Source: a virus (Duplodnaviria; Caudoviricetes). From it: a DNA stretch of 64,000 nucleotides. The notes under the pieces are model-generated. The model did not search any database and had not been told where the DNA came from. It saw only the letters and a program-made list of their open reading frames with translations. Within the stretch, counting starts at the first letter, position 1. Each line of letters opens with the position of its first letter. The stretch spans positions 4,174 to 68,173 of the IMG/VR virus record IMGVR_UViG_3300037467_001298. One strand, written 5' to 3'. The translations under genes were made by a program, and so were the position numbers. Shown piece by piece: positions 3,437 to 25,810 of the stretch.

Positions 3437-4468
3437 ATGTTTATTATTGAAGGAGAATCATTTGAGGAAGTCTATAAAAAATCAATTATAGAAATTCTTA
3501 AAAATGGTGATGTAGTTGCTCCTCGCGGTTCAGCAACATTTGAATTAGCACCTGCAACTATTGTAATTAAAAACGCTAGAAAATTTTTAACAATGCCAAA
3601 GTTAAGAAAAGGTAATTATACTTTTCAATTAGCAGAAGCATTATGGATGTTACGAGGTTCAAACGACCTTGAAGAAATCGCTCATTATAATAAGGTATGG
3701 CGTAACTTTGAAGATGAAGACGACCCAGGAATTTTAAATGGCGCTTACGGTGAAAGACTTCGTGATTGGGATATGGGTGTAGACCAATTTATTGAGGTTT
3801 ATAATAAATTGAAAAAAGATCCTTATTCACGTCAAGCAGTTGCTATGATTTGGGATCCTGTTAGAGATAATGCCATTCATGAGAATGGGAATTACTCTAA
3901 AGATATCCCTTGTACAAATTACTTCAATTTCCAAATTCGTAATGGTAAACTAAATATGTGGACTGTAATGAGAAGTAATGATTTACACAAAGGGTCTATA
4001 TATGATATTCCAAACTTTATTATTTTCCAACATATTATTGCAGGTTGGTTGGGTGTTGAAGTTGGAAAATATACGCACTCTGCTGCCTCACTTCACATTT
4101 ATGAATCTGATGTAGAAAATTTTATTGATATTTATAATGATAAAGATGATACAGTTGTTTATGATGGTGAAGATTATGGTGACCCAAGAGTTCCACTTTC
4201 TGAATTTAATTTTGTAATGTCTACTATTTCTGTTATTGAATATTCAACAAGACAGGTATTAGATAAAGAAACATTTGATGATTATTTAGAAACTTTATTA
4301 AATGTTATTAGCGATATTAAAAACACTTGGTGGAGATCTGTTGCTGCACAAATTGCTATGTATAATTATAGAAAATTAGGTGCCACTGAAGAAGAATTTA
4401 AGAAATTCTTACCTTTTATTACTAATGAATATAGAAAAAATGTTGAAAAATGGAGGAGTTTAGTATGA
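3437..4468 (+). CDS. thymidylate synthase homolog, predicted dCMP hydroxymethylase-type
   Basis: AEALWML, YGERL, SRQAV, catalytic DIPC, RSNDLHKGSIYD with Asp at the N177-equivalent position, SLHIY. Confidence 0.85.
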   Translation: MFIIEGESFEEVYKKSIIEILKNGDVVAPRGSATFELAPATIVIKNARKFLTMPKLRKGNYTFQLAEALWMLRGSNDLEEIAHYNKVWRNFEDEDDPGILNGAYGERLRDWDMGVDQFIEVYNKLKKDPYSRQAVAMIWDPVRDNAIHENGNYSKDIPCTNYFNFQIRNGKLNMWTVMRSNDLHKGSIYDIPNFIIFQHIIAGWLGVEVGKYTHSAASLHIYESDVENFIDIYNDKDDTVVYDGEDYGDPRVPLSEFNFVMSTISVIEYSTRQVLDKETFDDYLETLLNVISDIKNTWWRSVAAQIAMYNYRKLGATEEEFKKFLPFITNEYRKNVEKWRSLV

Positions 4469-6698: not shown

Positions 6699-6723
6699 AT
6701 TTGACAAAATTTTCATTATTATA

Positions 6724-6752
6724 TATACAAATTTATCAAAAATTGTTATAAT
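6724..6752 (+). promoter_or_regulatory. sigmaA-type promoter
   Basis: TATACA-N17-TATAAT, extended TG. Confidence 0.55.
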
Positions 6753-6793
6753 TTAATTGTGGAATTTTTTATTGAATAAGGGAGGTTTTATTA

Positions 6794-6964: not shown

Positions 6965-7027
6965 TTCTGCAGAAGGGGTTGCTCAACGCTTCTCCTTTAT
7001 TTAATGAAAATATTCTAGAAATTTTTG

Positions 7028-7056
7028 TTTACATTTAATTGCTATTGGTATATAAT
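7028..7056 (+). promoter_or_regulatory. sigmaA-type promoter of topoisomerase B subunit
   Basis: TTTACA-N17-TATAAT. Confidence 0.75.
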
Positions 7057-7105
7057 GAAAATATGTTCAATTAAATGAAATTTGTTTTTGATGGAGGAGA
7101 TATTA

Positions 7106-9016
7106 GTGAGTGAAAAACGCGACCAAATAAAGGCACTTACAACGAGAGAACAGTGCCGTGATAAACTTCCAACATGGTTTGGTTCTCGTGAAAATTATCT
7201 TCATGGCTTCCGTGAAGTTTTAGGGAATGCGGTTGATGAAGTTATTAATAACTATAAAAAAGGTATTATAACAATTAAACTTGAAGATGATATGCAAACA
7301 ATTTCAGTATCAGATACAGGAAGGGGAATTCCAATTGACGGTACCACTGACGGTAAGCCTAACTATATTTTACTTTTTGAAACTTTATTTGCTGGAACAA
7401 ACTACGATAACAACGAAAATGGAAAGATTACGGTGGGCACTAATGGAGTCGGTACAACTGTGCTTAATCATACTTCTTGCCTCTTTGAAGTAACATCCTT
7501 CCGAAACGGTAAAAAATCAAAATTAACTTATATAGACGGTGGAAGCAACCAAGGTCTGACTACTGAGACGTGCAAGGACACTTTACACGGTTCTATCTTC
7601 AAATTCAGACTAGATCCTGAAGTTTATACATCTGTTATATATCAGAAGGAAGAAATTGTTGCTATTATAAAACACGTTGCTGCAACTTCAAATCAAATTA
7701 CCTTTAATTTTGATTTTAAAGGAGAACGGGAGACATTTAATTACAATTCACTGTCAGATTACTTCCTAGAAGTAGCCACTGGCCTCACATCTAAGCCGAT
7801 TGTAGGACCTGAAGTTGAATATGACCGTGAAGATGAATTAAATAAAATCGGTATTTTATTTGCTACTGCAAGTGACCCAATTCAAGAATCATTCCTTAAC
7901 TTTAACTGGTTACCTAATAAAGGCTCAATTCATACAGGAATTATTAACGGTGTTAGGTCATTCATTAATAAGGAAGCGCAAGAACAGAAACTAATTGATA
8001 AAAAATCAAATATAACACCCACTGATGTAGAGGATTCAGTAAGTTATGTTTGTTCCTTCCTTTCAACTAATGTTGAATATGCGAACCAAACAAAACTGTC
8101 AACTGATAAAAAATTATACCGTTCATTAGTTAATGAATATGTACAAAGTTTGTTGGAAGCATTCAAGGCTGAACAACCTAAGGAATTTGATAAATTCCTA
8201 AAACATATTGTTCAAGTTAATAAATTCAATAATCGTAATACTGCTGCTAAACAAGCACTAAAAAAGAAATTAAATGAAAGAGCTGATACTTTAACAAACC
8301 GTGTTGAAAAACTTGTTGAGTGTGATAAACATGGTCCTAATGCTGAATTATTTATTGCCGAAGGTGATTCTGCTTTAGGTTCAATCGTTCAGGCCCGTGA
8401 CAGTTTATATCAGGCCGCATATCCATTGAGAGGTAAAATCCTTAACTGTTTAAAAGCCGATTATTTAAAAATATTTGACAATAAGGTTGTTATGGATTTA
8501 ATTAAAGTTATTGGCACAGGAGTTATCGCTGATAAAAAACATAAGGATATTGAAACTTTTGAAATTACTCGTTCTAATTATGGAAAGTATATTATATCAA
8601 CTGATGCCGATGCAGATGGTCAACAAATCTGTTGCTTATTAATAACATTCTTCTATCGTTTAATGAGACCTTTACTTGAACAAGGTATGGTTTATGTTGC
8701 AAAGACACCATTATATGAAGTAAAACTTGAGGATGATTCAATGATTTATTACTTCAGTGAAAAGGAAAAAGATGAAAAACTTCCAAAAGTAAAAGGCAAA
8801 TATGTTATTGCTCGTTGTAAAGGATTAGGTGAACTTGAAGCCGAAACAATGGCATACACTGCAATGGATAAGGATACGCGTGTTCTTGAACGTGTAACTG
8901 TAAATAATGCTGAAGCAATGGTTGCTGCTGTTGAAAAATTCATGGGTGCAGATGTACATGATAGGAAAGAATATATTGAAGAAAATCTTTATAAATATAT
9001 TGCGGCGGTGGATTAA
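7106..9016 (+). CDS. gyrB: type IIA topoisomerase subunit B (GyrB/ParE family)
   Basis: GHKL ATPase EVLGNAVDE, DTGRGIP, GTNGVG; TOPRIM AEGDSA, PLRGKILN, STDADADG; RCKGLGE. GTG start at 7106 follows GGAGGAG. Confidence 0.93.
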   Translation: MSEKRDQIKALTTREQCRDKLPTWFGSRENYLHGFREVLGNAVDEVINNYKKGIITIKLEDDMQTISVSDTGRGIPIDGTTDGKPNYILLFETLFAGTNYDNNENGKITVGTNGVGTTVLNHTSCLFEVTSFRNGKKSKLTYIDGGSNQGLTTETCKDTLHGSIFKFRLDPEVYTSVIYQKEEIVAIIKHVAATSNQITFNFDFKGERETFNYNSLSDYFLEVATGLTSKPIVGPEVEYDREDELNKIGILFATASDPIQESFLNFNWLPNKGSIHTGIINGVRSFINKEAQEQKLIDKKSNITPTDVEDSVSYVCSFLSTNVEYANQTKLSTDKKLYRSLVNEYVQSLLEAFKAEQPKEFDKFLKHIVQVNKFNNRNTAAKQALKKKLNERADTLTNRVEKLVECDKHGPNAELFIAEGDSALGSIVQARDSLYQAAYPLRGKILNCLKADYLKIFDNKVVMDLIKVIGTGVIADKKHKDIETFEITRSNYGKYIISTDADADGQQICCLLITFFYRLMRPLLEQGMVYVAKTPLYEVKLEDDSMIYYFSEKEKDEKLPKVKGKYVIARCKGLGELEAETMAYTAMDKDTRVLERVTVNNAEAMVAAVEKFMGADVHDRKEYIEENLYKYIAAVD

Positions 9017-9109
9017 ATGTTAAAAGAAATTTTATTAGGAACAGTTTCGGGAGTTATAACATTATTTATTATTTTTTGTGGCCTAATGTATTTTATCTTT
9101 GGTTTATAA
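9017..9109 (+). CDS. 30 aa single-TM micro-protein
   Basis: MLKEILLGTVSGVITLFIIFCGLMYFIFGL, directly abutting the gyrB stop. Confidence 0.5.
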   Translation: MLKEILLGTVSGVITLFIIFCGLMYFIFGL

Positions 9110-9116
9110 TTTCCAT

Positions 9117-9145
9117 TTTACAAATCAAATTTAAAATGTTATAAT
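9117..9145 (+). promoter_or_regulatory. sigmaA-type promoter
   Basis: TTTACA-N17-TATAAT, extended TG. Confidence 0.75.
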
Positions 9146-9178
9146 AAATTATACGATTTAATTGGAGGCGATTTTAGT

Positions 9179-9310
9179 ATGGCAAGACATGGAAGTTATA
9201 ATTGTCCAAATTGTGATTCAACTGAGGTTTTTGTTACATTTGAAGGTAAGTTAGTGTGTAATGACTGTATGTGGATAAGTCCTGAACCTGTTGTTGAGGA
9301 GAAAAAGTAA
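9179..9310 (+). CDS. 43 aa zinc-ribbon protein
   Basis: GGAGG RBS; CPNC...CNDC. Confidence 0.7.
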   Translation: MARHGSYNCPNCDSTEVFVTFEGKLVCNDCMWISPEPVVEEKK

Positions 9311-9423
9311 TGGAACAGTGGAAAGGTGGACCAAAAAGGTTAACAAAAACGGGTGAACATATTTTAGGAATTATAATCGGCTGTATAATTGGTATTGCAG
9401 CTGGTTTTCTTGGAGGAATGTAA
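9310..9423 (+). CDS. 37 aa membrane micro-protein
   Basis: TAATG coupling; ILGIIIGCIIGIAAGFLGG hydrophobic segment; contains the RBS for gyrA. Confidence 0.55.
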   Translation: MEQWKGGPKRLTKTGEHILGIIIGCIIGIAAGFLGGM

Positions 9424-9424
9424 A

Positions 9425-11428
9425 ATGAGTGTTATTAATATTAATGCACAAGATTTAGTACAAGATAACATGATGGACTATGGTGCTTATGTTATATTAC
9501 AACGTGCTATTCCTGATATTCGAGATGGTTTAAAACCTGTTCATAGAAGGATCTTATATACAATGCACCTTGAAAAAGCAACAAAGTTTACAAAAAGTGC
9601 AAATATCGAAGGTGCTGTAATGAAGATTCATCCGCATGGTTCATCTTATGGAACAATTGTAAATATGGCACAGCGTGACAGACAATCAGTTTTATTAATA
9701 AACGGTAAAGGGAACTTTGGTCAAGCAACATCAAGAGATTTAGCATATGCTGCTTCACGTTATACTGAAGTTAAATTATCTGATGTTGGAATTGAAATGA
9801 TGAAGGATCTTAATAAAAATTTAGTTGACTTTGTTCCATCATATGATGGTAAAGCAACAGTTCCTGAAGTACTACCTGTTAAATTTCCTGTGATTTTAAC
9901 ACAAGCATCAAGTGGTGTAGCGTATGGTATGGCTTCATCAATTCCATCCTTTAACCTTAAGGAATTAGTAAATGGAATGATTAAGTTTATTCGTGAAGGT
10001 AAAAAACTTTTACTTGTACCTGATTTTTCTACTAAAGGTTTTATTGTGAATAACCGTGAAGTTTTTCGTAAAATTAATCTAGAAGGTTCAGGCTCAGTTC
10101 AATTAAGAGGTAAGGTTGAAGTTGATGGTTATAATGTTATGATAACTGAAATACCTTACTCAACAACTCGTGAAGCAATAATTGATAAGATTGTTGAATT
10201 ATCTAAGGACAAATTTAAAAACGTTGCTGAAGTTAAAGACCTCACAGATTTAAAAGGTTTAAAGGTGAGAGTAAGATTTAAACGTGGAACTGATATGAAT
10301 ACTGAAGTTGAAAAACTATTTCAGTTAACACCTTTGCAATCTTCGTACAGTACTAATTTGAATGTATTAATAAATGGTTCGCCAAAGAATATGTCAGTAT
10401 GGGAAGTTATTGAAGAATGGTTGAAATGGCGGAAGCAAACTATTCAAAGAGGCGTTCAATTTGATATTAATAAAATGGAAAAAGATCTTCACATATTAAA
10501 AGGTTTAGAAAAGGTATTACTTGACATTGACAAAGCAATTGAAATCATTCGGCATAATGAAGAAAAGTATATAATTCAGTTATTAATGGATTATTTTAAA
10601 ATTGATGAATTACAAGCTAATGAAGTTGCTGATATGAAACTTCGATATATTAACCGTGAATATATCATAAAGAAAATAAAAGATATTGATAATCTTGCTC
10701 ATAAAATTGAGAATTATAAAGATCTTGTACAAAATAATGAGAGATTAGACAATATTATTATTAAGGACCTCGAAGATGTCGCTGAAAAGTATGGTGTTGA
10801 ACGTCAAAGTAAATTACTTGAGGTTAACTCATCAAGGGTAAAGGCTGTTAAAAAGAAAATGGAAGAGGTTCCAAATTATCCTACAAAATTGTTTATAACA
10901 AAAGAAGGATATGTTAAAAAGATGGCAATTCATGCAAACTTTGAGGACCAATATGTCAAACCGGGAGATGAGATTATTAATGAATTTAGTACATGGAATA
11001 AAGCTGAATTACTCGTTTTTGGTAAGGACCGTTGCTGTCACAAAATTAAAGTTTCGGAAATTGAAGAATCAACTAACAAGGCGCTTGGTACCTTTATACC
11101 TAGTCTTTGTGATGTTGATGGTATTGTGGGTTGCTCTGTTTTCGATGAGTCTAATAAGTTTATTATTATCGGTTATGATAACAACAAAATAGCAAAGATA
11201 AACCTAAAATCATTTGAAGGCAATAGGAAAAAACTTCAAAATTCACTTGCGGATAATGCAAGCGTTGTAGGAATACTAACATTTAAAGATGAAGGTAAAT
11301 TTATATTTAAAACGACAACTTCAACATTTAAAGTTCCTACATCAAAATTTGATTTAAAAGAAAGATGGACTAAAGGTACTTACGGTCCTCAGAAAGGTAA
11401 ATTGATTGAAATTAGAATGGCTGATTAA
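9425..11428 (+). CDS. gyrA: type IIA topoisomerase subunit A (GyrA/ParC family)
   Basis: RAIPDIRDGLKPVHRRIL, HPHG, catalytic AASRYTE; likely start ATG 9425 after GGAGG. Confidence 0.93.
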   Translation: MSVININAQDLVQDNMMDYGAYVILQRAIPDIRDGLKPVHRRILYTMHLEKATKFTKSANIEGAVMKIHPHGSSYGTIVNMAQRDRQSVLLINGKGNFGQATSRDLAYAASRYTEVKLSDVGIEMMKDLNKNLVDFVPSYDGKATVPEVLPVKFPVILTQASSGVAYGMASSIPSFNLKELVNGMIKFIREGKKLLLVPDFSTKGFIVNNREVFRKINLEGSGSVQLRGKVEVDGYNVMITEIPYSTTREAIIDKIVELSKDKFKNVAEVKDLTDLKGLKVRVRFKRGTDMNTEVEKLFQLTPLQSSYSTNLNVLINGSPKNMSVWEVIEEWLKWRKQTIQRGVQFDINKMEKDLHILKGLEKVLLDIDKAIEIIRHNEEKYIIQLLMDYFKIDELQANEVADMKLRYINREYIIKKIKDIDNLAHKIENYKDLVQNNERLDNIIIKDLEDVAEKYGVERQSKLLEVNSSRVKAVKKKMEEVPNYPTKLFITKEGYVKKMAIHANFEDQYVKPGDEIINEFSTWNKAELLVFGKDRCCHKIKVSEIEESTNKALGTFIPSLCDVDGIVGCSVFDESNKFIIIGYDNNKIAKINLKSFEGNRKKLQNSLADNASVVGILTFKDEGKFIFKTTTSTFKVPTSKFDLKERWTKGTYGPQKGKLIEIRMAD

Positions 11429-16763: not shown

Positions 16764-17156
16764 ATGATAAATACGTTGCAAATGGTACTTGATAAACAAG
16801 CGGAGTTTCAAAAGAAGTTTGGATTTGAAGGATTAGAGCAGACCGATATTGAAACGGTCTCTTCTTTAATCCATACTCATTCACATTTTACAATGGAAGA
16901 ACTTTTTGAAATGGAAAGAGAACTTCCATATCATAAACCCTGGAAAGATTATTCAGGGTTAACTAAATACGAAGTTATAGAAAATTTTCAAAAAGGAAGA
17001 GAAGAATGGATTGATGCTTTTATCTTTCTAATGAATGTTGGGTTATTCTTAGGTTTCGATTCAAAACTAATTGAGCAAATGTATTTAGAAAAACTTGGAA
17101 TAAATCATAAAAGACAAGAAGATCCAAAACTAGGATATATTACGGAGGTAAATTAA
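16764..17156 (+). CDS. all-alpha NTP pyrophosphatase (dimeric dUTPase / T4 gp56 dCTPase-like, MazG superfamily)
   Basis: LDKQAEFQ, MEELFEM, HKPWK, REEWIDAFIFLMNV, KLGINHKRQ. Confidence 0.8.
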   Translation: MINTLQMVLDKQAEFQKKFGFEGLEQTDIETVSSLIHTHSHFTMEELFEMERELPYHKPWKDYSGLTKYEVIENFQKGREEWIDAFIFLMNVGLFLGFDSKLIEQMYLEKLGINHKRQEDPKLGYITEVN

Positions 17157-17342: not shown

Positions 17343-17444
17343 TGCGATATAACGAACGGATGGTAGGGATTAACGAATCTCTACCATTTGTCGTATTTTG
17401 TCGATATTTGTTTAGAAAAGAGAATGTTTTTAAGACAAATCCTA

Positions 17445-17473
17445 TTTACATAATTTTCATATGATGTTATTAT
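17445..17473 (+). promoter_or_regulatory. sigmaA-type promoter
   Basis: TTTACA-N17-TATTAT, extended TG. Confidence 0.55.
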
Positions 17474-17554
17474 ATACATATACAAATTAATAAAAAAATA
17501 TTTAAAAAAGCGTTTAAAAGTGATAAAATATGTATATAATAATAAAAATATGAA

Positions 17555-17983
17555 ATGAGGATGAATGTAATGGCTGTTCAAACAGATTTAAGTATTATTA
17601 AGGAAATTATTGAAATGACTTGCGAAGAGAAAGTAAAACTAATATTTGCTGAAAAACCAGGTTGGTTACTGATGAAAACAGCCGATAAAAATAAAGGAAT
17701 TGGTGCTATAAGATTAAATAAAAATTCATTTATTACTTTATATGTTGATACTAATGAAGGTTACTTATTAGAAGATAAAATTACTGAACTTGAAACATTT
17801 AAAGGAAAAATTATTGATATAAATTCAAAGGTAACTGGAAACTTTGTACAAAATAAAATTAAACTTTACAGTGAGGATGCTATTGAATTTGCTATTGAAC
17901 TTATAAATAAAGTATTTAATGAAGGTGCTGTATTTACAGGAAAAAGAATAAGAGTATCAAAAACCGAAACAAGCGTCGCCTAG
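17555..17983 (+). CDS. hypothetical monocistronic protein, possible DUF5655/YjbR-like fold
   Basis: C-terminal KIKLYSEDAIEFAIELINKVF pattern; own promoter and terminator. Confidence 0.65.
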   Translation: MRMNVMAVQTDLSIIKEIIEMTCEEKVKLIFAEKPGWLLMKTADKNKGIGAIRLNKNSFITLYVDTNEGYLLEDKITELETFKGKIIDINSKVTGNFVQNKIKLYSEDAIEFAIELINKVFNEGAVFTGKRIRVSKTETSVA

Positions 17984-17999
17984 GCGGCGTTTTTATTTT
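17972..17999 (+). terminator. intrinsic terminator
   Basis: GCGTCGCC/GGCGGCGT GC-rich stem with TTTTTATTTT. Confidence 0.75.
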
Positions 18000-18160
18000 C
18001 CCAATTATCGGAACAGTCCGACAATTTAATAGACAAGTAATTAATATATTTACTATTAGTATTAATATAATAATTCATTACATTCATTATTATAATGGAA
18101 AAAATAGTATCTGTAAACTGAAATTAAAAAATTTCTATTTTAAAATTAAAATATATTTGG

Positions 18161-18189
18161 TTTACATATAATTAAAAAGTATATATAAT
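18161..18189 (+). promoter_or_regulatory. sigmaA-type promoter of the kinase-phosphatase-nucleotidyltransferase-GT operon
   Basis: TTTACA-N17-TATAAT. Confidence 0.75.
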
Positions 18190-18216
18190 ATTGATATATT
18201 TAAATGGAGGTGTCAT

Positions 18217-19251
18217 ATGGGTAAAGTCAATATTTTAAAAGAGTTTAAAGGTGGAAGTATGGCAAGAACCTTTTTAGTCGATAAATATGGACAAAAATAT
18301 GTTAGGAAAATTGCGGCCAATGATAAAGATGGGTTAGGTATTGAAAAACTTTATAAGCAATGGAAATGGCAATTTGACTTTTGTAGAAATGATGAACCAG
18401 GAGTTATGCCTGATACTTCATTTTTTGTGTTTGGGAAGGACTCTGGTTACTATGATATGGAATATGTAGAACTTGGTACTTTTCTTGATTTATTACTTAA
18501 TGAGGAAGATATTGATGGAATGATTCTTCATGATATATTAAAAGCAGGGTCATTAATAGCAAAACCTGTAGATGAAGAACCTAAACATGATTATTTATTA
18601 GTTAATCATTTACAAAAAATGGTAAAAAGAACTCAATCACTACAACCTTATGAGTTTTACAAACATGATTCAATTGATATAAATGGAAAGTCATGTCAAA
18701 ATCTTCATAGAATATTAGAGTTTATTGTAAACGAACCTGGGCTAATTAAGTTATTATCACCTAAAAAATTATATAGGTCTCATGGTGATTTTACTTTCCA
18801 AAACATTCTTGCTGATGAATATGATTTGGTTGTAATAGACCCACGTGGTGAAGGTGCTGACTCAATTTATTATGATATTAGCAAACTTTATCAAAGTTGT
18901 CATGGTAAATATGATTTACTTTTTGATGGTAATTATAGAGTTTGGTCAGATGGTTATACTGATGTTATCAATTATGAGATACTTGATGGTGTAGAAAAAT
19001 TCAATGCTATTTATGATGAGCTTCGTGAACTAATACCTCAGTATTATGAAATTGAAGATGAGCATTGGGAATTAATTACAAAATTTTATGAGGCAAGTCA
19101 CTTCATTTCAATGACACCTTTTAGATTAAAAGAAAATGGAAATATAACAGCAGTCTGTTATGCAATTGGTATAGAATTATTAAATGAGGTAGTGGAGGAA
19201 TATTTAAATGTTAAATCTGAACTTAAAAAACAAGAAAGCATTACTATTTGA
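18217..19251 (+). CDS. APH/choline-kinase-fold small-molecule kinase
   Basis: Gly loop KGGSMART, VRK lysine, YDMEYV hinge, HGDFTFQNIL catalytic loop, IDPRG. Confidence 0.85.
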   Translation: MGKVNILKEFKGGSMARTFLVDKYGQKYVRKIAANDKDGLGIEKLYKQWKWQFDFCRNDEPGVMPDTSFFVFGKDSGYYDMEYVELGTFLDLLLNEEDIDGMILHDILKAGSLIAKPVDEEPKHDYLLVNHLQKMVKRTQSLQPYEFYKHDSIDINGKSCQNLHRILEFIVNEPGLIKLLSPKKLYRSHGDFTFQNILADEYDLVVIDPRGEGADSIYYDISKLYQSCHGKYDLLFDGNYRVWSDGYTDVINYEILDGVEKFNAIYDELRELIPQYYEIEDEHWELITKFYEASHFISMTPFRLKENGNITAVCYAIGIELLNEVVEEYLNVKSELKKQESITI

Positions 19252-19813
19252 TGTAGACGGTACTATCGCTGATACAATGCCAGCACATAATAAAGCATAT
19301 GAGTTAGCATTCCATTTAAACAATGTTCCTTTTGATATTGAACTTCATAAAACATATGCCCCTTTTGGTGGTAATGTATTAATGAGGGAAACTGTTGAAG
19401 CAATAGGTTATGGTGCTCAAGCGCATCAAATCATTAAGGATAAACAAGCATTATTGGGTTTTTGTTTAGATAGATTTATGAGACCCAATACTGAACTCAT
19501 TAATTTTATTAAACAAAATGTTGAGAAATATTATATTGCTTTTGTATCAAATGGTCGTAGAACAAGTATTCAACAAGTACTTGAAAAATTAGGTTTATTA
19601 TATTATGCTGATTATATTACAACATCTGATATTTTGGGCGCTGCGAAGCCCTCACCAGAAGCATATAATTATACAATGCTCATGTTAGGTGTTAATCCTG
19701 ATGAAGTAATTACATTTGAGGATAATGAGATTGGTATTACTGCTGCAACTCGTGCTAAAATAAAAGATATTATTAAAGTTAATACGGAGGATTTTAGATT
19801 TGAAAAACTTTAA
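19208..19813 (+). CDS. HAD-superfamily sugar phosphatase/mutase (beta-PGM-like)
   Basis: FDVDGTIADT, FVSNG, AKPSPEAY, FEDNEIG. Confidence 0.92.
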   Translation: MLNLNLKNKKALLFDVDGTIADTMPAHNKAYELAFHLNNVPFDIELHKTYAPFGGNVLMRETVEAIGYGAQAHQIIKDKQALLGFCLDRFMRPNTELINFIKQNVEKYYIAFVSNGRRTSIQQVLEKLGLLYYADYITTSDILGAAKPSPEAYNYTMLMLGVNPDEVITFEDNEIGITAATRAKIKDIIKVNTEDFRFEKL

Positions 19814-20546
19814 AGGTATTATACTCGCAGGTGGTAGAGGATCTCGCCTATCACCTATAACAGATGTATATAATAAATATTTATGTCCTGTTTATGATAA
19901 ACTCATGATAGAATATTCTATCCTATCATTAAAAGATGCAGGAATAACTGATATAGCAATTATTCTTGGTACAAAGTCTGCTGGTGAAACAATGGACTAT
20001 CTCAAATCAGGTAAAAAATATGGTGTTAAATTTACATATTTTTATCAGGATGAGCCGCTGGGAGTTCCGAATGCTCTGTATCAGGCTAAAGATTGGGCTG
20101 GACTAACTAACGTAGTTGTATTGTGCGCTGATAATATTATTTATGATAATTTAATGCCATTCTTAGAAATGTATAAAGGCGGAGGTTTTATTACAACTAA
20201 ATTCTTTAATGATAAAGAGGAACTAAAGAGATTCGCTGTGCTAGAGTTTGATGAAGATTTAAGTATTAATAAAATTGTAGAAAAACCTGAAAACCCTAAA
20301 TCCTCCCTAGCATTTTGTGGGATACAAATATACGATTTACAATTATGGTCAATTATTAAAGGACTGGAACCTTCTAGACGCGGTGAATATGAAATTGTGG
20401 ATGTATTAAATGAATATATTAATCGTAAAAAGTTTAGTTATGGAACATTAACCAAACAATGGTTCGACTGTGGCAATAAGGATGCTTTGTTTGAAGCACA
20501 ACAATATGCTTTCTTTAATTCGATTGAGGAGGCCCTAAACAAATGA
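19800..20546 (+). CDS. sugar-1-phosphate nucleotidyltransferase (RmlA/SpsI-like)
   Basis: GIILAGGRGSRLSPIT..NK, QDEPLG, ADNI, VEKP, PSRRGEYEIVD, WFDCG; TTG start. Confidence 0.92.
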   Translation: MKNFKGIILAGGRGSRLSPITDVYNKYLCPVYDKLMIEYSILSLKDAGITDIAIILGTKSAGETMDYLKSGKKYGVKFTYFYQDEPLGVPNALYQAKDWAGLTNVVVLCADNIIYDNLMPFLEMYKGGGFITTKFFNDKEELKRFAVLEFDEDLSINKIVEKPENPKSSLAFCGIQIYDLQLWSIIKGLEPSRRGEYEIVDVLNEYINRKKFSYGTLTKQWFDCGNKDALFEAQQYAFFNSIEEALNK

Positions 20547-21994
20547 CCTATCAAATTATTAATTCCCATAAAGACAACCCTAATAAAAAGAATATTATGT
20601 TATTCTTGCTCGAGAGAAATCTCGGCAAGAAAACTAATTTCTTGTCATATTCATATATACTTAATACTGTTAAAATTTTACAAAAAGATTTCAATGTTTT
20701 CCTCGTTGCCCGTTCATCAAGTTCAAGAGGCGCCTGGATAGAGGTAGCATTACAAACACCTATTTTGAAAGACTGTATACTTATTAATCTTGATGCTTCA
20801 GGAAGGTTTATGAGAGTTGAAACAGGCGAACAGGAGTTATATGATGATGATAAAGCCGCATACAATTATACTTATAAGTATATGGATACTTTGTTTACTA
20901 ACCTCATTCATGGTGAGCCATGGATATTTAATAATCTCGTTGGCACTATTTCTTCTGCTCTTTTTCTTGTATATGAAAGGAATCACGAAATTATACCATA
21001 CGATGAAAGAACTGAAAAACTCTCAGCAGGAGCCATGGAAACAGCCCGTAAACGACTTACAGGGGAACGTCAATTCTTCTCGTTCCGAATGATTAGTCAG
21101 AGATGTATGTATCCTTTATACTTCCTCACAAGACTTATGAGGGACTATCCAAATTTATGGCATTACTCATTCTGTCACGATACTAGCTCAATATGGTACC
21201 CATGGTCTGCTAAGGTAAATCCTCTTACAAAAAATGTTAAATGTTTTTACTTTGTAAATGATGATAGAGGACCTATGAGGGATTTTAAAGAATTCCCATC
21301 TGCGCAGATTCAAGATGCCTTTGGTAAAAAACAATTGACAAAGGATGAGTTAAATGATATTCTCAATAATAAAAAACATGATTTTATCTTTGGCGGAACT
21401 TTTCCTTATGATGTTAGTTACCGCTTGGCGGATTGGGTACGTTATTTTAATGACCTTAATTGTGATGCTACTATTCGTACTCAAACTGATGGTACTTCCA
21501 CTATTACTTGTACAGAGATTAAGGATCCACTCGAAACAAAGAAATTCAAAGGTAAAAAGATAAAAGATGAAAAGGCGTTAGATGTTATTAGAAGTATTTC
21601 TGTCAATAAGAATGTTAAACCTACTGTATCTCAACAAGAGTATCACGAGGAACAAAAGGATTATATGTTTACAATTATTTTAAAATGCTTTTATGGTAAG
21701 TATGATTCTTTAAACTTTAGGATTTATTCTTCATTAGCAAATGGCGTTATTCCTTTATTAGCTAATGACTATGATGTTGATTGCCTTCAAATTCCGTTAT
21801 TATTTAAACAACTATTAACGGTTAGAGATAATATTGATATTGAAGAAAAGATTGAATATTATAAAAATAACCCTGAAAAATATAAGGAACTATTTTGGGC
21901 ACTCTATAATCACTATGTAAAGCCTGAACACTATCAAAATGAGTGGTATGAAAAAGTGTTCAAAGAAAATTATTTTAATGAATTATATAAATAA
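20543..21994 (+). CDS. GT-B glycosyltransferase, T4 beta-glucosyltransferase-like (GT1)
   Basis: KKHDFIFGGTF resembles T4 BGT KTLDVIYGGSF; LNFRIYSSLANGVIPLLANDYD resembles ITLRVWETMASDAVMLIDEEFD; final helices IEEKIEYYKNNPEKYKEL. By-eye alignment. Confidence 0.65.
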   Translation: MTYQIINSHKDNPNKKNIMLFLLERNLGKKTNFLSYSYILNTVKILQKDFNVFLVARSSSSRGAWIEVALQTPILKDCILINLDASGRFMRVETGEQELYDDDKAAYNYTYKYMDTLFTNLIHGEPWIFNNLVGTISSALFLVYERNHEIIPYDERTEKLSAGAMETARKRLTGERQFFSFRMISQRCMYPLYFLTRLMRDYPNLWHYSFCHDTSSIWYPWSAKVNPLTKNVKCFYFVNDDRGPMRDFKEFPSAQIQDAFGKKQLTKDELNDILNNKKHDFIFGGTFPYDVSYRLADWVRYFNDLNCDATIRTQTDGTSTITCTEIKDPLETKKFKGKKIKDEKALDVIRSISVNKNVKPTVSQQEYHEEQKDYMFTIILKCFYGKYDSLNFRIYSSLANGVIPLLANDYDVDCLQIPLLFKQLLTVRDNIDIEEKIEYYKNNPEKYKELFWALYNHYVKPEHYQNEWYEKVFKENYFNELYK

Positions 21995-22010
21995 AAAGAA
22001 TTTTATATGG

Positions 22011-22039
22011 TTTACGAAAACACATTACATATATATAAT
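22011..22039 (+). promoter_or_regulatory. sigmaA-type promoter
   Basis: TTTACG-N17-TATAAT. Confidence 0.65.
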
Positions 22040-22082
22040 TGTAATGTGTTTTTTAATTTATTAATTGAATGGAGGTATTATT

Positions 22083-22739
22083 ATGAGCAGTTTGGAAAAA
22101 TATAATATTATTAAATCAGATGAGGAAACACCAGATGGGATAAGTGAAAAAACATTCGGTTATGTAGAAGGTAAAAAGGTTTTGATTAAAACAGATTATA
22201 GGCCGACTGAGATACTTGCAGAATACTTTGCATACAAATTAGGTGAAGCATTAGAAATTCCTGTTAACAAAGTCAAATTAATTGATTGTGGCACACTTTT
22301 AGGTTTAAAAAATAACCTGTGTTCAGTTCACTGGTGGGAAGAATGTTTTATTGATTCTGCAGATTATGTAGGAATTGAAGAGCAAAAAGATTTAGATATG
22401 ATGAAGTTCTTTGACGCTATAATTGGAAATGATGATAGGCACCATCATAATTATGGGTTTATAGATGATTGTATATTCTTAATTGACCACGGTCTATCAT
22501 ATCCTTGGAAAAGTTTTTATTCTGAAAACATTAATGACCTTCATCAAACATGGCATAAAGTACCTGAAATTACAAATAAATTTTTATCTTTAACAGAAGA
22601 TAATTTTAGAAAAATGTTAGAACTTCCAGATGATTTAGAACATAATATACCTGATGGAAAATTCAATAAAATTGTAGAAAGAATGTTTGAAGCACAAGAT
22701 ATTTTAAAGGAGGCAATAGCAAATGCAAACGCAGCCTAA
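22083..22739 (+). CDS. HipA-like / PI3K-like kinase
   Basis: VLIK, AEYFAYKLGEALEIP, DAIIGNDDRHHHNY, LIDHG; ATG 22083 after GGAGG. Confidence 0.8.
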   Translation: MSSLEKYNIIKSDEETPDGISEKTFGYVEGKKVLIKTDYRPTEILAEYFAYKLGEALEIPVNKVKLIDCGTLLGLKNNLCSVHWWEECFIDSADYVGIEEQKDLDMMKFFDAIIGNDDRHHHNYGFIDDCIFLIDHGLSYPWKSFYSENINDLHQTWHKVPEITNKFLSLTEDNFRKMLELPDDLEHNIPDGKFNKIVERMFEAQDILKEAIANANAA

Positions 22740-22749
22740 TAATATACCA

Positions 22750-22778
22750 TTTACAATTTTCATAATTTAATATATAAT
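22750..22778 (+). promoter_or_regulatory. sigmaA-type promoter
   Basis: TTTACA-N17-TATAAT. Confidence 0.7.
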
Positions 22779-22784
22779 TAAATT

Positions 22785-23513
22785 ATGGAGGTGTTTAATT
22801 TGGAATATGGGTTTATTTATATTACAACTAACAATATTAATAATAAAAAATATATTGGCAAATGTAAATATAAACCAGGTAGTAAAAATTACTTAGGTTC
22901 AGGCTTACATTTGAAACGTGCTATTAATAAATATGGAAAAGAAAACTTTTCAAGAGATATTATTGATACTGCTAAAAATGAAAATGAATTAAATAAAAAA
23001 GAAAAGTATTGGATTGATTTTTATAATGCTATACATTCTGATAATTTTTATAATATAGCAGAAGGTGGGCATGGTGGTAATACATTAGCTGGGAAAACAG
23101 AAGAGGAATTAAAACAATTTGGCGAAATTATAAGTAATGCAAATAAAGGAAGAAAATGGTCGGATGAAAGCAAACTTAATAGAAGTAAAGAAAGGAAAGG
23201 CAAATTTACAGGTAAAGACCATCATATGTTTGGTAAAAAACTTTCTGACGAACAAAAAAAGAAAATTAGTAATAAAGTAAAAGGTGGTAAGAATCCATCA
23301 GCAAAGAAAGTTTATATTTATAAAGGTAGTGAATTAATAAAAGTTTGTAATACTTTTGATGAGACAGTTCATTGGTTTTATAAACAATATCGTGCTTATT
23401 CTCTTACTACAAGTAATAAATTAATAAGAAATTTAAGAAAAAGTGGTGGTACTTGTATTAAAACAGGATTAAGTTTTAGTGATAAAAAATTAGGAGGTAT
23501 TAACAATGAGTAG
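22785..23513 (+). mobile_element. free-standing GIY-YIG homing endonuclease with NUMOD3-like repeats
   Basis: GFIY...KKYIG, YLGSG, ELNKKEKYWI, YNIAEGG, HHMFGKKLSDEQKKKIS. Confidence 0.88.
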
Positions 23514-24717
23514 GGTTGGCTTCGGGAAAATGGGCCGTTCAATATATTTTGATAGAAAAAAATGGAAAGAAAATGCGGGAAATAATGAAGCACCAATATT
23601 AATAAGTGCCATTGCAAAACTTCAACCTAATACTACTTACTATTTAATTGGTAAATCTGATTTCAGTAGGGTGTCAGATGATATTAGGAAAGAATGGTTT
23701 CCACATAATAATGTAATTGATTGTTGGAAAGATTTCAATCCTAAGCAACACGACCCAACAACATGGATTTGGGAACAGTTAAAAAATAAAAATTTAGATT
23801 ATTGTATAATTCACGGTGGGATGGCTTCTCTAAGTATACCAAATAAAATATATTGCTTAGATAGAAAAACAAAAAAACCTGACTACTCAAAACTAAGACA
23901 ACCTCTTGCATCACTTGTTAATTATTGCTCACCAATAACATATTTTTTAAATGAGTCAAAAATAGATTGGTTAACAATTACATCAGATGGAAGGTATATG
24001 CCTCTACCTGCTCGCGATTTAATTAATCCTGAGAAAATTAGTTTGGGTGTTAGAGAAGGTGTTGTAGAAATCGAACGAATGAAATCCTATGAGGACCAAG
24101 AAACAATGGTTAAGCATAAAGTAGATTTACGTTACGCTGCTGCCGAATTTCAATATTTACTTGATCCTAAATTCAGCACATTTAGGTATAACGAGGAAAA
24201 AACTCAAAAAGTTGGTTTATTCTTTCATCAATATGATAATAAAAAACGTGTAGCTGCAATTCAAGATATTATTGAGCAATTTGGTGAAGATGAAATTGCA
24301 GTATATGGAAAATGGGAATTAGCAGGTCATGATAAAAGGTATAAAGGTCCTGTGAACTTTGAAGAATTACAAGATATTTTACCTTCTGTTAAATATACTT
24401 TCTGCTATCCTATAATTCCTAATGACTTTTCAGGTAAATGGGTTGAAAGTGTTCGAGCTGGTATAATTCCGTTCTTCCATTCAACTTATGGTGATAGGAA
24501 AATAATGTCAAGATATGATAAATCATTTGAGTGGCTTTATGTTGATAATGGACAAGAAATGAAACAAAAGATAGAATATCTTGAACAAAATCCTACAGCG
24601 TATTATAGGATGAAAAATTTACTTATATCAACAGTTAGTCGTTTCCCTAAAAATGGCGCCTCATTTGTTAATGCAATAAACAAAGCAGTAAAAGACATGA
24701 AAGGTATGAGAAAATAA
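23506..24717 (+). CDS. GT-B glycosyltransferase, T4 beta-glucosyltransferase-like (GT2)
   Basis: N-terminal RVGFGKMG...NNEAPILISAI resembles BGT KIAIINMG...SSETIYLFKVI; YKGPVNFEEL, FSGKWVESVRAGIIPFF, LYVDNGQEMKQKIEYLEQNP resemble the BGT C-terminus. By-eye alignment. Confidence 0.65.
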   Translation: MSRVGFGKMGRSIYFDRKKWKENAGNNEAPILISAIAKLQPNTTYYLIGKSDFSRVSDDIRKEWFPHNNVIDCWKDFNPKQHDPTTWIWEQLKNKNLDYCIIHGGMASLSIPNKIYCLDRKTKKPDYSKLRQPLASLVNYCSPITYFLNESKIDWLTITSDGRYMPLPARDLINPEKISLGVREGVVEIERMKSYEDQETMVKHKVDLRYAAAEFQYLLDPKFSTFRYNEEKTQKVGLFFHQYDNKKRVAAIQDIIEQFGEDEIAVYGKWELAGHDKRYKGPVNFEELQDILPSVKYTFCYPIIPNDFSGKWVESVRAGIIPFFHSTYGDRKIMSRYDKSFEWLYVDNGQEMKQKIEYLEQNPTAYYRMKNLLISTVSRFPKNGASFVNAINKAVKDMKGMRK

Positions 24718-24869
24718 TGCAAACAGCAATAGCAACTCCAGAACCTGAAAATGATTATAATTTTTTTATGGTTGATGGTAAATTAATTAAAGTTGAAAAT
24801 ATTGAAAAATTTATTAATACTTTGGTTTACAACAATAAAAATTCTACGTATAATCACAATGTAAATTAA
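24717..24869 (+). CDS. possible 50 aa hypothetical protein
   Basis: TAATG coupling to GT2; 3' part overlaps the next promoter. Confidence 0.35.
   Translation: MQTAIATPEPENDYNFFMVDGKLIKVENIEKFINTLVYNNKNSTYNHNVN
24826..24854 (+). promoter_or_regulatory. sigmaA-type promoter
   Basis: TTTACA-N17-TATAAT. Confidence 0.75.
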
Positions 24870-24887
24870 AACGATGGAGGTTACAAA

Positions 24888-25109
24888 ATGAATGATTTAA
24901 ATATTTTGTTAGGTCAATCTTTTACTCACATGGTAGGATCTGAATCACAAGCAAAACGTGTGGTTGAGGATTATAAAGCCGAATATACAATTAAAAAGTC
25001 AACAATTGACAAAAAGGTTAAAAAAGGTATGGAATATTGGAAAGTAACTGTTGTTATTGACCATGTTTCTGAAAAGGATGCTTTCGGTATGTACTTTGAT
25101 GAGGTGTAG
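24888..25109 (+). CDS. hypothetical protein
   Basis: GGAGG RBS, 73 aa ORF. Confidence 0.75.
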   Translation: MNDLNILLGQSFTHMVGSESQAKRVVEDYKAEYTIKKSTIDKKVKKGMEYWKVTVVIDHVSEKDAFGMYFDEV

Positions 25110-25114
25110 AAAAA

Positions 25115-25810
25115 ATGACCTCTCAAATGATTGTAGATGAGCCTTATGGGTTCATCTACGTCACAGAAAATTTATTAAATGGTAAAAAGTATATTGGCCA
25201 ACATACTAATTTTAATGATAAGTATTTAGGTAGTGGTACAGTAATTAAAAAAGCAATAGGAAAGTATGGTAATAAAAACTTTAAAAGAAAAATCATATAT
25301 ATTGCTTATAACGAAAGTGAATTGAATTTTGCTGAAAAATTGTTTATCCGTTCAAGAAATGCTGTTAAAAGTAATATGTATTATAATATTGCTGAAGGTG
25401 GATTAGGTGGTAATTCTTGGGCAGGAAAAACAAATGAAGAAATTGAAATTATTAAATATAAAATAAGTGAAGGTATGAAAGGTAATAAAAATCCTGTATT
25501 TGGTAAAACAGGAATAAATGCTCCTTTCTTTGGAAAAACTTATACTCATACAAATGAGGCTAAACAAAAAATTGGAATAGCAAATAAAATTGCTCAACAA
25601 AAGAAAGTATTACTTGTTGATATTAAAGGCAATATAATTGAAATATTTCAATCTGTTGATGAAGTAAAGAAAGGAAACTGGAGGAAACAATTTCCAAAGC
25701 CAAATGGTATGGATTATGTTATGAACTGTTTGAGAAATAAGTTATTATTTCATAATCATTATTTAATTTACGAAGGTGATTATAATGAGTTCAAGTCAAA
25801 TGCGTTCTGA
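25115..25810 (+). mobile_element. second free-standing GIY-YIG homing endonuclease
   Basis: GFIY...KKYIG, YLGSG, ELNFAEKLFI, YNIAEGG, NPVFGK and HTNEAKQKI NUMOD3-like segments. Confidence 0.88.

Follow-up and report, generated by a model that had tools for sequence, protein, structure and literature searches.

Phage DNA glycosylation

The locus studied here raises the question of whether a phage can itself make the activated sugar with which its DNA is to be glycosylated. Three overlapping genes for a kinase, a phosphatase and a nucleotidyltransferase (ORFs A, B and C, hereafter the trio) lie in a stretch of 64,000 nucleotides (hereafter the window) that belongs to a 68-kb IMG/VR fragment, about 77% complete, from an uncultured Bacillus-type phage. 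No DNA near-identical to the window was found in isolated phages. The trio is mentioned neither in a jumbo-phage comparative paper nor in a preprint on viral DNA glycosyltransferases, and the literature yielded nothing relevant for the Atlas cluster name 'WeoK'.

A kinase-phosphatase-nucleotidyltransferase route to UDP-arabinofuranose was published in 2026 for RB69, DLP3 and HY126 (PMC13326640). In this route (hereafter the Afh route) Ara5P is converted through Araf-1,5-P2 and Araf-1-P into UDP-Araf, the genes involved being those for AfhE/AfhF in HY126, gp51, gp52:53 and gp55 in RB69, and gp81-83 in DLP3 (PMC13326640). We consider it probable that the trio is a self-contained sugar-activation pathway serving the DNA glycosylation of the phage, with an Afh-like order of reactions and 5-hydroxymethylcytosine (5hmC) as the acceptor.

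Organization of the operon

The coordinates and gene content of the trio (Table 1) match the original prediction, with the ORFs overlapping and belonging to the folds and families that it had described. The overlap amounts to 44 nt between ORFs A and B and to 14 nt between ORFs B and C, and a GGAGG sequence is located 9 nt upstream of the TTG of ORF C. The kinase and the nucleotidyltransferase are encoded apart, by ORFs that flank the HAD gene. At position 20543 an ATGA is shared by the start of GT1 and the stop of ORF C, which confirms the proposed translational coupling of the nucleotidyltransferase to this glycosyltransferase gene. A signal scan of positions 17400-25200 revealed only one terminator-like hairpin, directly upstream of the trio. 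A single promoter had also been postulated to drive the overlapping ORFs. The overlaps are real and a site with an 11/12 match is present, although this AT-rich DNA abounds in promoter-like sites (67 found versus 49 expected), so that the promoter itself is plausible and unproven.

Table 1. Position of the trio, its signals and the associated genes in the window
Feature	Position	Strand	Remarks
Thymidylate-synthase (TS) homologue, dCMP-hydroxymethylase type	3437..4468	+	Top PDB match MilA CMP hydroxymethylase, 4.5e-26
Intrinsic-terminator-like hairpin and T run	17971..17992	+	Closes upstream unit
Promoter-like TTTACA-17-TATAAT	18161..18189	+	11/12 match
ORF A, APH/choline-kinase-fold small-molecule kinase	18217..19251	+	344 aa; GGAGG 7 nt upstream
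ORF B, capped HAD, beta-phosphoglucomutase (beta-PGM) family	19208..19813	+	201 aa; own GGAGG
ORF C, RmlA/SpsI-like sugar-1-phosphate nucleotidyltransferase	19800..20546	+	248 aa; TTG start
GT1, glycosyltransferase	20543..21994	+	483 aa; ATGA overlap with ORF C
K2, HipA/PI3K-like small kinase	22065..22739	+	Weak HipA_C match; phrog_3162, 2.5e-14
GIY-YIG/NUMOD3 homing endonuclease	22785..23513	+	Pfam matches; inserted between K2 and GT2
GT2, T4 beta-glucosyltransferase (BGT)-like GT-B enzyme	23506..24717	+	Weak profile match to T4 BGT; 1bgt the top fold match, nearly tied with others

Features of the three enzymes

ORF A contains the motifs SHGDFTFQNIL and IDPRG, and its assignment to the APH/choline-kinase fold was borne out by the AlphaFold model (pLDDT 91.7). 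The model shows a bilobal, protein-kinase-like fold, which Foldseek matched to APH-type kinases with a probability of 1.00. The structural matches, with VIA Z values of 17-19 over ~280 residues, were MtnK, maltokinase, FN3K, glucosamine kinase, APHs including APH(4), and LicA. The VRK, HGDxxxQN and IDPRG motifs are invariant among 43 close homologues, and K31 (VRK), H189-G-D191...N196 and D208 (IDPRG) are invariant in 26 sequences; the HxDxxxxN catalytic loop, the metal-binding Asp and the strand-3 Lys are all present in ORF A. The protein matched phrog_21938 (3.5e-58) and no Pfam family at E <= 0.01, including PF01636 (APH), which was reached, weakly, by remote fused relatives of ORF A alone. 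Single-sequence and profile searches found no sequence-level relative among solved structures or characterised kinases, so the substrate is not readable from a characterised homologue, and the fold ranking was tied across substrates (MtnK, FN3K, maltokinase, glucosamine kinase and APHs). Remote homologues of ORF A are fused to nucleotidyltransferases. In a small local search the kinase HMM gave a remote match (E 1.2e-11) to the Straboviridae nucleotidyltransferase-kinase fusion that is the analogue of AfhE. ORF A is a putative sugar or sugar-phosphate 1-kinase.

ORF B was confirmed as a HAD enzyme by its matches to the Pfam families Hydrolase (3e-23, spanning residues 10-183) and HAD_2 (2.5e-21). 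HAD motifs I-IV (D15-x-D17, the DxD motif, S114, K147 and E171-D172) are invariant, and the distance of ~95 residues between motifs I and II accommodates a helical cap. Scores remained below the cut-offs both for TIGR02009 (3e-23, 83 bits; cut-off 153.35) and for the bPGM equivalog (59.9 bits; cut-off 189.4), and the PDB ranking was headed by the TM_1254 sugar phosphatase, followed by CbbY and beta-PGM. The family to which ORF B belongs includes a true mutase, beta-PGM. Enterococcus phage 9183 combines a GT2 orthologue and a nucleotidyltransferase-kinase fusion with a capless HAD of 114 aa, which speaks for simple removal of a phosphate rather than a mutase reaction. ORF B is predicted to be a sugar phosphate or bisphosphate phosphatase.

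The RmlA/SpsI-like character of ORF C was also upheld, with values of 2.7e-45 for PF00483 (NTP_transferase) and 1.1e-48 for B. anthracis RfbA (3hl3). Against the RmlA equivalog models (TIGR01207 / TIGR01208) it scored below the cut-offs: 175.9 bits for rmlA_long (1e-51; cut-off 320.25) and 159.3 bits for rmlA (cut-off 360.65). When 34 sequences of its phage clade were compared with 86 RmlA-like neighbours, residues G11, G12, R16, K26, Q83, G88, D111, N112, E161, K162, R194 and D223 were invariant in both groups. The catalytic, nucleotide-binding and phosphate-binding residues of RmlA are all retained in ORF C, whose nucleotide partner would be dTTP or UTP. Placing the phage 9183 fusion in the ORF C clade, and hence assigning the same sugar to it, was rejected, the N-terminal domain of the fusion belonging to another subfamily.

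Conservation of the trio and linkage to DNA-glycosyltransferase families

In 8/8 phage loci examined the trio is uninterrupted and its gene order unchanged (identity 42-80%), and in all eight it is followed by a gene for a BGT-like GT2 or a PF11440 AGT. An IMG/VR scan for further trio loci provided one new locus. In Bacillus phage G, gp311, gp310 and gp309 share 47, 52 and 60% identity with ORFs A, B and C, respectively, and a TS (gp319) and a C5-MTase-like protein (gp301) are kept as partners.

GT2 always accompanies the trio in the lineage of the window, and in locus L008 it comes directly after it. The sole significant PDB match of the GT2 family profile was T4 BGT, a weak match restricted to the C-terminal domain (E 2.6e-4); with the GT2 model (pLDDT 92.1), Foldseek ranked 1bgt first, by a narrow margin over BshA and other GT-B enzymes. 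The C-terminal domains of GT1 and GT2 are homologous (hhalign 97.3%, E 1.7e-11). GT1 is kept in L002 and L003, has a 27%-identical relative in L007 and showed no relation to the AGT profile. Neither GT1 nor GT2, used as a single sequence, drew any useful match from the PDB, and neither had a BLAST match to the phage G glycosyltransferases. K2 travels with GT2, being located directly 5' of it in L002, L003 and L013. The GIY-YIG/NUMOD3 endonuclease is missing at the matching position of these three loci and lies outside the sugar pathway. Among the AGT genes, that of L005 matched the T4 alpha-GT at 3.7e-22, and in the trio-linked AGT homologues H116 is replaced by Leu or Ile and H140 by Phe. The phages phiVPE25/phiVFW, in which glycosylation of cytosine DNA is experimentally established (PMC4999554), were dropped as a direct anchor for the window, no GT2 orthologue being found at 1e-5.

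In distant relatives, nucleotidyltransferase-kinase fusions of 550-600 aa were found, together with one nucleotidyltransferase-HAD fusion and one HAD gene adjoining a nucleotidyltransferase-kinase fusion. Distant cellular homologues of the trio are located in polysaccharide gene clusters, and surface glycans are the normal use of RmlA/SpsI-like enzymes, as would be expected if the sugar were destined for host surface polymers such as wall teichoic acid, or for virion proteins, for instance in superinfection exclusion or capsid glycosylation. Such a target is very unlikely: the operon belongs to the arm for replication and nucleotide metabolism, genes for a flippase, a polymerase or a membrane glycosyltransferase are absent from its neighbourhood, and the trio travels with a dCMP-hydroxymethylase-type TS homologue and has after it, in every case, members of the two glycosyltransferase families whose only known role is in DNA glucosylation.

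The three genes might also not form a single pathway. The HAD would then be a pyrimidine 5'-nucleotidase that depletes a canonical dNMP, the kinase would act on an unrelated substrate, and the nucleotidyltransferase alone would deal with sugars, regenerating dTDP- or UDP-glucose from host glucose-1-phosphate. Base-replacing phages often encode dNMP phosphatases, and ORF B weakly matches YjjG (1e-11) and pyrimidine 5'-nucleotidase models (7e-8). However, the genes overlap and their order is invariant in the 8/8 loci, the fusions of the nucleotidyltransferase with either partner and the HAD gene beside a nucleotidyltransferase-kinase fusion occur in cellular sugar clusters, and the nucleotide pool is already edited by P-loop dNMP kinases, a dUTPase and a MazG-like enzyme, all of which makes this arrangement extremely improbable. 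Synteny with BGT-like/AGT genes, the distant fusions and the dCMP-hydroxymethylase-type TS point instead to one pathway that feeds DNA-aimed glycosyltransferases.

The acceptor base

The TS homologue of the window has the motif R-S-N-D...D, in which D169 of EcThyA is kept and N177 is changed to Asp; the equivalent motif in the IME523 TS homologue is R-S-Q-N. An Asn at EcThyA position 169 is diagnostic of 5-hydroxy-dCMP synthase (PMC13326640). 5-Hydroxycytosine, the base in RB69, was ruled out for the window on account of the retained D169. Given this hydroxymethylase-type signature, the trio most likely makes a dTDP- or UDP-sugar from a host sugar phosphate, for use on 5hmC.

Proposed pathway and order of the reactions

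As regards the substrate, the reaction order, DNA as the acceptor and the chemistry of the pathway as a whole, we infer the following scheme. ORF A would phosphorylate the anomeric OH of a host sugar phosphate to give a sugar 1,n-bisphosphate, from which ORF B would remove the distal phosphate, and ORF C would condense the resulting sugar-1-phosphate with dTTP or UTP. The NDP-sugar would be transferred by the BGT-like GT2 and GT1 to 5hmC, which would enter DNA through the TS homologue.

The same genes could yield the same product in a salvage order, like that of MupP-AmgK-MurU in Pseudomonas, with the HAD freeing a host sugar from its 6-phosphate, the kinase forming the 1-phosphate and the nucleotidyltransferase acting last, so that no bisphosphate appears. 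MtnK and maltokinase, which are characterised APH-fold matches, take unphosphorylated sugars at the anomeric carbon, capped HADs of the beta-PGM family are mostly sugar monophosphate phosphatases, and ORFs C and B weakly match MurU (6e-21) and MupP (7e-5), respectively. Nevertheless, the NCBIfam scores are far under the cut-offs (75 versus 250 bits for ORF C and MurU, 23 versus 359 bits for ORF B and MupP), and the sequence-closest phage precedent, the AfhE-type kinase domain, turns a sugar 5-phosphate into a bisphosphate (PMC13326640). The kinase, HAD, nucleotidyltransferase gene order of the 8/8 loci also speaks for the bisphosphate scheme, although gene order is no proof of reaction order. 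The salvage order is, on balance, unlikely.

Nature of the sugar

Positions 110, 146, 172 and 176 of ORF C, which we take from RmlA structures to be the sugar pocket, distinguish the phage clade (A110 in 34/34, A146 in 32/34, F172 in 34/34 and Q176 in 34/34) from its RmlA-like neighbours (G110 in 85/86, G146 in 85/86, V172 in 67/86 and Y176 in 84/86). This pocket assignment agrees with the PDB titles of the Y177F and W224H variants. The clade-specific pocket, together with the loss of two glucose-contacting His residues in the linked AGT homologues, may be a hint, at the level of sequence, of a sugar other than glucose. Towards glucose or a close hexose point the O6-binding Asn, the Glu-Lys-Pro motif, the beta-PGM-family HAD, the two glucosyltransferase families and the fact that no sugar-modifying enzyme is encoded. 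A hexopyranose is the most likely sugar, and the odds that it is glucose are roughly even. A pentose, heptose or polyol donor, as originally envisaged, is not favoured, given the RmlA-type enzyme.

We tentatively put forward a more specific possibility, which is somewhat doubtful: the trio might produce a dTDP- or UDP-activated non-glucose hexose that Bacillota hosts lack, to be placed on 5hmC by GT2 and GT1, perhaps with a K2 step. This would be an undescribed hypermodification common to phage G, a clade of uncultured Bacillaceae phages and, in a fused form of the module, the 9183 group of Enterococcus phages.

Comparison with known systems

The experimentally described Afh systems, and by prediction the window, owe the donor for GT-B enzymes acting on C5-modified cytosine to a phage-encoded set of three activities: a kinase of the APH-like type, a HAD phosphatase and a nucleotidyltransferase. 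Between the kinase families there is remote homology (E 1.2e-11), and the genes adjoin a TS homologue and nucleotide-metabolism genes. The differences are several. The window enzymes are separate, whereas Afh has a bifunctional protein with an N-terminal nucleotidyltransferase and a C-terminal kinase; the nucleotidyltransferase is RmlA-type instead of MurU/LicC-type, and the HAD is a capped member of the beta-PGM family instead of a small, capless one. The window TS keeps D169 and is of the hydroxymethylase type, in contrast to the 5-hydroxycytosine synthase type of Afh; phages of the window type have hosts among the Bacillota and probably use a hexose. In addition, the window has no SIS arabinose-5-phosphate isomerase. 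The Straboviridae nucleotidyltransferase-kinase fusion adjoins a SIS isomerase and a D169N TS homologue, whereas a search of the 68-kb record for the SIS domain PF01380 gave no match at E <= 0.1, an absence that is not fully certain because of the incompleteness of this record.

With the T-even phages (T4 gp42, alpha-GT of GT72 and beta-GT of GT63) the window shares a dCMP-hydroxymethylase-type TS homologue. Its GT2 weakly resembles T4 BGT, and glycosyltransferases of phage G, L005 and L007 are related to T4 AGT. T4 takes its UDP-glucose from the host and has no genes for making the donor; the trio-linked AGT homologues differ from T4 AGT in the replacement of H116 and H140. Phage G has an orthologous trio in matching order, with gp306, gp313, gp319 and gp301 as partners, but two alpha-GT homologues instead of BGT-like enzymes, and no matches to GT1, GT2 or K2. 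Its gp311 is unannotated in the record, and the literature consulted discusses gp306 and gp313 only.

The original prediction had drawn an analogy with NDP-heptose synthesis (GmhA, HddA/HldE, GmhB and HddC). The logic of that pathway, with phosphorylation of a sugar phosphate at the anomeric position, loss of the distal phosphate to a HAD phosphatase and a final nucleotidyltransferase step, holds for the trio, but membership does not, as no ORF is orthologous to HddA/HldE, GmhB or HddC. The window kinase has the APH fold and is not of the GHMP or ribokinase type, the HAD is capped and not GmhB-type, no GmhA isomerase is present, and ORF C reached only 37 bits with the HddC model (2.4e-9; cut-off 300). 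The Afh route provides a direct phage precedent for the kinase-phosphatase-nucleotidyltransferase logic, closer than the heptose pathway (PMC13326640). The MupP-AmgK-MurU pathway of Pseudomonas also leads to a UDP-sugar by means of an APH-fold anomeric kinase, a HAD and an NTP_transferase-family enzyme; there, however, the phosphatase acts first and the pathway belongs to the recycling of the cell wall, not to phage DNA. Most likely, the trio is a split and in part non-orthologous variant of an Afh-like route, without the isomerase, and constitutes a new gene set.

Significance for phage biology

DNA sugar coats decide the survival of phages against restriction enzymes, CRISPR and anti-phage DNA glycosylases, a recent discovery, and the systems that make them also yield enzymes for epigenetic sequencing. 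Before 2026 the donor sugar was viewed as borrowed from the host, until the RB69-like arabinose pathway showed self-supply. The trio would be a second, independently assembled gene set for donor synthesis, in phages of Gram-positive bacteria, and its cassette moves as a three-gene block that partners either classical DNA glucosyltransferase family. As a cultured carrier of the trio, phage G would allow both sugar and pathway to be worked out directly. A new sugar would add one more modified base to those known; if it is glucose, the trio would represent a phosphoglucomutase-independent escape from the host supply of UDP-glucose.

Organization of the operon

The IMG/VR virus record, of which the window is the larger part, is 68 kb long and ~77% complete; GC content is ~30%. 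Three ORFs encoding an APH-fold kinase (ORF A), a capped HAD enzyme (ORF B) and an RmlA-like nucleotidyltransferase (ORF C), hereafter the trio, lie inside its arm for replication and nucleotide metabolism. The stop codon of ORF C overlaps the ATG of the glycosyltransferase gene GT1 in an ATGA. This reading of the sequence bore out the operon of the original prediction in its coordinates, its overlapping ORFs and its coupling to GT1. The promoter is graded as plausible, since AT-rich DNA such as this contains many promoter-like sites. In contigs L002 and L008 a gene similar to the MazG-like one occupies the equivalent position and a trimeric dUTPase is encoded separately, an arrangement that would fit a dCTPase role.

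Features of the window and of two related loci
Feature	Position	Remarks
Replication and nucleotide metabolism arm	1-35 kb, + strand	RecJ, thymidylate synthase (TS) homologue, C5-methylase-like protein, topoisomerase subunits, Pol III alpha, MazG-like enzyme, dUTPase, thymidylate kinase, ligase
TS homologue	3437-4468	
C5-cytosine-methylase-like protein	4732-5949	
MazG/dimeric-dUTPase-like protein	16764-17156	Upstream of trio operon
Hairpin with T run	17971-17992	Sole terminator-like site within 17400-25200
Promoter-like site	18161-18189	TTTACA-17-TATAAT; 3' of hairpin
ORF A	18217-19251	GGAGG upstream; end overlaps ORF B
ORF B	19208-19813	GGAGG upstream; end overlaps ORF C
ORF C	19800-20546	TTG start; GGAGG upstream
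GT1	20543-21994	
K2	22065-22739	HipA/PI3K-like, 224 aa
GIY-YIG/NUMOD3 homing endonuclease	22785-23513	Insertion between K2 and GT2; 8-nt overlap with GT2 start
Second GIY-YIG/NUMOD3 homing endonuclease	25115-25810	
GT1 relative, contig L007	8463-9821, - strand	27% identity
Enterococcus phage 9183 locus (MT939241)	6701-11134	TS homologue with window-like dCMP signature, dUTPase, capless 114-aa HAD, nucleotidyltransferase-kinase fusion, GT2 orthologue (38% identity)

Conservation of the three genes

Eight loci were compared (the window, phage G and six further phage-like contigs), with all ORFs scored by local profiles. The order kinase, HAD, nucleotidyltransferase was found in all eight, usually with overlapping ends, and each had a glycosyltransferase 3' of the trio. 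This enzyme was of the 400-aa GT2 type in the window, L002, L003, L008 and L013, and of the PF11440 AGT family (T4 alpha-glucosyltransferase) in phage G, L005 and L007. Phage G gp311, gp310 and gp309 share 47, 52 and 60% identity with ORFs A, B and C, in identical order; they are flanked by two T4 alpha-glucosyltransferase homologues, with the conserved TS and C5-methylase-like genes nearby. In cellular polysaccharide clusters a nucleotidyltransferase-kinase fusion adjoins a HAD matching the family of ORF B, and in one such cluster the nucleotidyltransferase is fused to a HAD of that family. These fusions link the three activities, independently of synteny, to one pathway. That the genes have unrelated functions is unlikely in view of such fusions and of the invariant, overlapping gene order. 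In two cellular metagenome contigs (L004 and L006) trio relatives lie in polysaccharide clusters beside an SDR epimerase/dehydratase, a cupin and B12-binding radical SAM enzymes; in a 938-aa protein among them, two tandem kinase domains come after a nucleotidyltransferase.

The kinase and the probable phosphatase

ORF A had no match in Pfam or NCBIfam, nor any sequence match among solved structures, even with a 26-sequence profile. It is a member of phrog_21938 and also of a family of 43 clusters, nearly all from metagenomes plus phage G, in whose alignment VRK, HGDxxxQN and IDPRG are invariant. Its AlphaFold model (pLDDT 91.7) superposes on APH-type small-molecule kinases with Z 17-19. The ranking of its structural neighbours (among them methylthioribose kinase, maltokinase, fructosamine-3-kinase, glucosamine kinase, LicA and aminoglycoside kinases) was flat, so that the superposition settles the fold but not the substrate. 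An exhaustive search of representatives retrieved 781 remote relatives of the kinase, many of them 550-600 aa long with an N-terminal nucleotidyltransferase.

ORF B has all four HAD motifs and a helical cap. Its nearest models were beta-phosphoglucomutase (beta-PGM)-family hydrolases, every score being under cut-off, and its nearest structures were the sugar phosphatase TM_1254, a pyrophosphatase, the sugar bisphosphate phosphatase CbbY and beta-PGM. In Enterococcus phage 9183 a capless phosphatase occupies the HAD slot, which argues by analogy that ORF B is a phosphatase and not a mutase. A salvage order, in which phosphatase, anomeric kinase and nucleotidyltransferase act in turn as in MupP-AmgK-MurU, would leave the product unchanged and is, in our view, a less likely alternative to the kinase-first order.

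Comparison with the phage route to UDP-arabinofuranose

The DNA of phages RB69 and DLP3 contains arabinosylated 5-hydroxycytosine (PMC13326640, 2026). In this phage synthesis of UDP-arabinofuranose (Afh route), an SIS isomerase yields arabinose 5-phosphate, a bifunctional protein (HY126 AfhE) forms the 1,5-bisphosphate with its kinase half, a small HAD (AfhF) removes the 5-phosphate and the nucleotidyltransferase half of the bifunctional protein produces the UDP-sugar (PMC13326640). The ORF A family HMM matched the equivalent of the AfhE fusion in one Straboviridae phage at 1.2e-11, and there this fusion protein adjoins an SIS protein and a TS homologue with the D169N signature (EcThyA numbering) of PMC13326640. 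Because of this precedent and the remote kinase match, the kinase-phosphatase-nucleotidyltransferase logic originally proposed is right in kind; the analogy drawn with heptose pathways stands for that logic, but the Afh route is the closer precedent.

The window differs from the Afh route in every component. Its kinase and nucleotidyltransferase are separate proteins instead of halves of one, the latter being of RmlA type, a capped beta-PGM-family HAD stands in place of the small AfhF, the TS keeps D169, and no SIS or epimerase gene was found in the 68-kb, ~77% complete record. Enterococcus phage 9183, an isolated phage whose Pol III alpha is shared with the window phage (44% identity), has an intermediate design. 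Its TS homologue, dUTPase, HAD, fusion protein and GT2 orthologue together predict glycosylated hmC DNA with a phage-made donor; no report of such DNA was found in the literature on 9183 or the Planchet or TJE4 group.

A phage route to its own DNA-sugar donor has thus been known in kind since 2026, and the present cassette is a variant of it. No discussion of this cassette was found in the literature: gp311 is unannotated in the phage G sequence record, and the publications found (including PMC6024577 and the NAR 2026 paper) discuss only gp306 and gp313. Since phage G is cultured and carries the trio, the cassette is open to direct testing there.

Glycosyltransferases and expected acceptor base

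When the GT2 family profile was searched against all PDB sequences, the sole significant match was T4 beta-glucosyltransferase (BGT; E 2.6e-4). In Foldseek, the GT2 model (pLDDT 92.1) had 1bgt at the top of the list, with other GT-B enzymes close behind. The AGT of L005 matched T4 alpha-glucosyltransferase at 3.7e-22. The T4 members of both families glucosylate 5-hydroxymethylcytosine (5hmC) in DNA. BGT and AGT families are exclusive to phages (NAR 2026 paper). The DNA-type glycosyltransferases constantly beside the trio and the genomic position of the operon make it unlikely that the NDP-sugar is intended for a target other than DNA.

The C-terminal domain of GT1 is a divergent paralogue of that of GT2 (hhalign 97%). 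The GT1 relative of L007 adjoins a second nucleotidyltransferase-kinase fusion (559 aa), so GT1-type enzymes may draw on a second sugar with an activation route of its own. In the window, L002, L003 and L013 the gene immediately 5' of GT2 is K2, a small kinase that could phosphorylate sugar or base; K2 is absent from L008 and the AGT-type loci. The homing endonuclease between K2 and GT2 is missing at that site in related contigs.

The window TS homologue keeps D169, has the cytosine-specifying Asp at the N177 position and finds its best match in MilA CMP hydroxymethylase, so that 5hmC would be the expected acceptor base. This protein has a C-terminal extension of ~100 aa that the phage G (gp319) and L005 proteins also conserve, whereas the homologues of Enterococcus phage 9183 and IME523 lack it. 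The C5-methylase-like protein shares 47% identity with phage G gp301 and has a homologue beside the trio-AGT block in L005; its gene accompanies the glycosylation module, though the DNA should hold hmC instead of C.

Identity of the sugar

ORF C, a full-length nucleotidyltransferase of RmlA/SpsI-like type, matches B. anthracis RfbA best among solved structures by sequence (1.1e-48) and scores well under the RmlA equivalog cut-offs. A sharp gap separates the phage clade (n=34; at least 54% identity to ORF C) from the 86 nearest RmlA/SpsI-like proteins (at most 47%). All catalytic and phosphate-binding residues are common to both groups, whereas Ala110, Ala146, Phe172 and Gln176, fixed in the phage clade, are Gly, Gly, Val and Tyr in the neighbours. 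These positions presumably line the sugar pocket; the equivalents of Tyr177 and Leu89 have been targets of RmlA specificity engineering, with which the RmlA variant entries among the PDB matches to ORF C are consistent. All four trio-linked AGT homologues keep the UDP-binding residues and His114, with His116 replaced by Leu/Ile and His140 by Phe; the three histidines are the glucose contacts of T4 alpha-glucosyltransferase (PMC6024577). The pocket residues and the histidine replacements point to a non-glucose sugar, as had been proposed. Four features speak instead for glucose or a close hexose: ORF C keeps the O6-binding Asn and the Glu-Lys-Pro motif, the HAD family of ORF B is that handling glucose 1,6-bisphosphate, there is no gene for an enzyme that would modify the sugar, and both glycosyltransferase families beside the trio are glucosyltransferases. 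We consider the two outcomes about evenly balanced. The pentose, heptose or polyol derivative originally suggested seems less likely, because the nucleotidyltransferase is RmlA-type.

If the sugar is glucose, the route would run from Glc-6-P through Glc-1,6-P2 and Glc-1-P to NDP-glucose. Phosphoglucomutase and UDP-glucose pyrophosphorylase functions are readily lost by Bacillus under phage pressure, and such a route would make the phage independent of both host enzymes.
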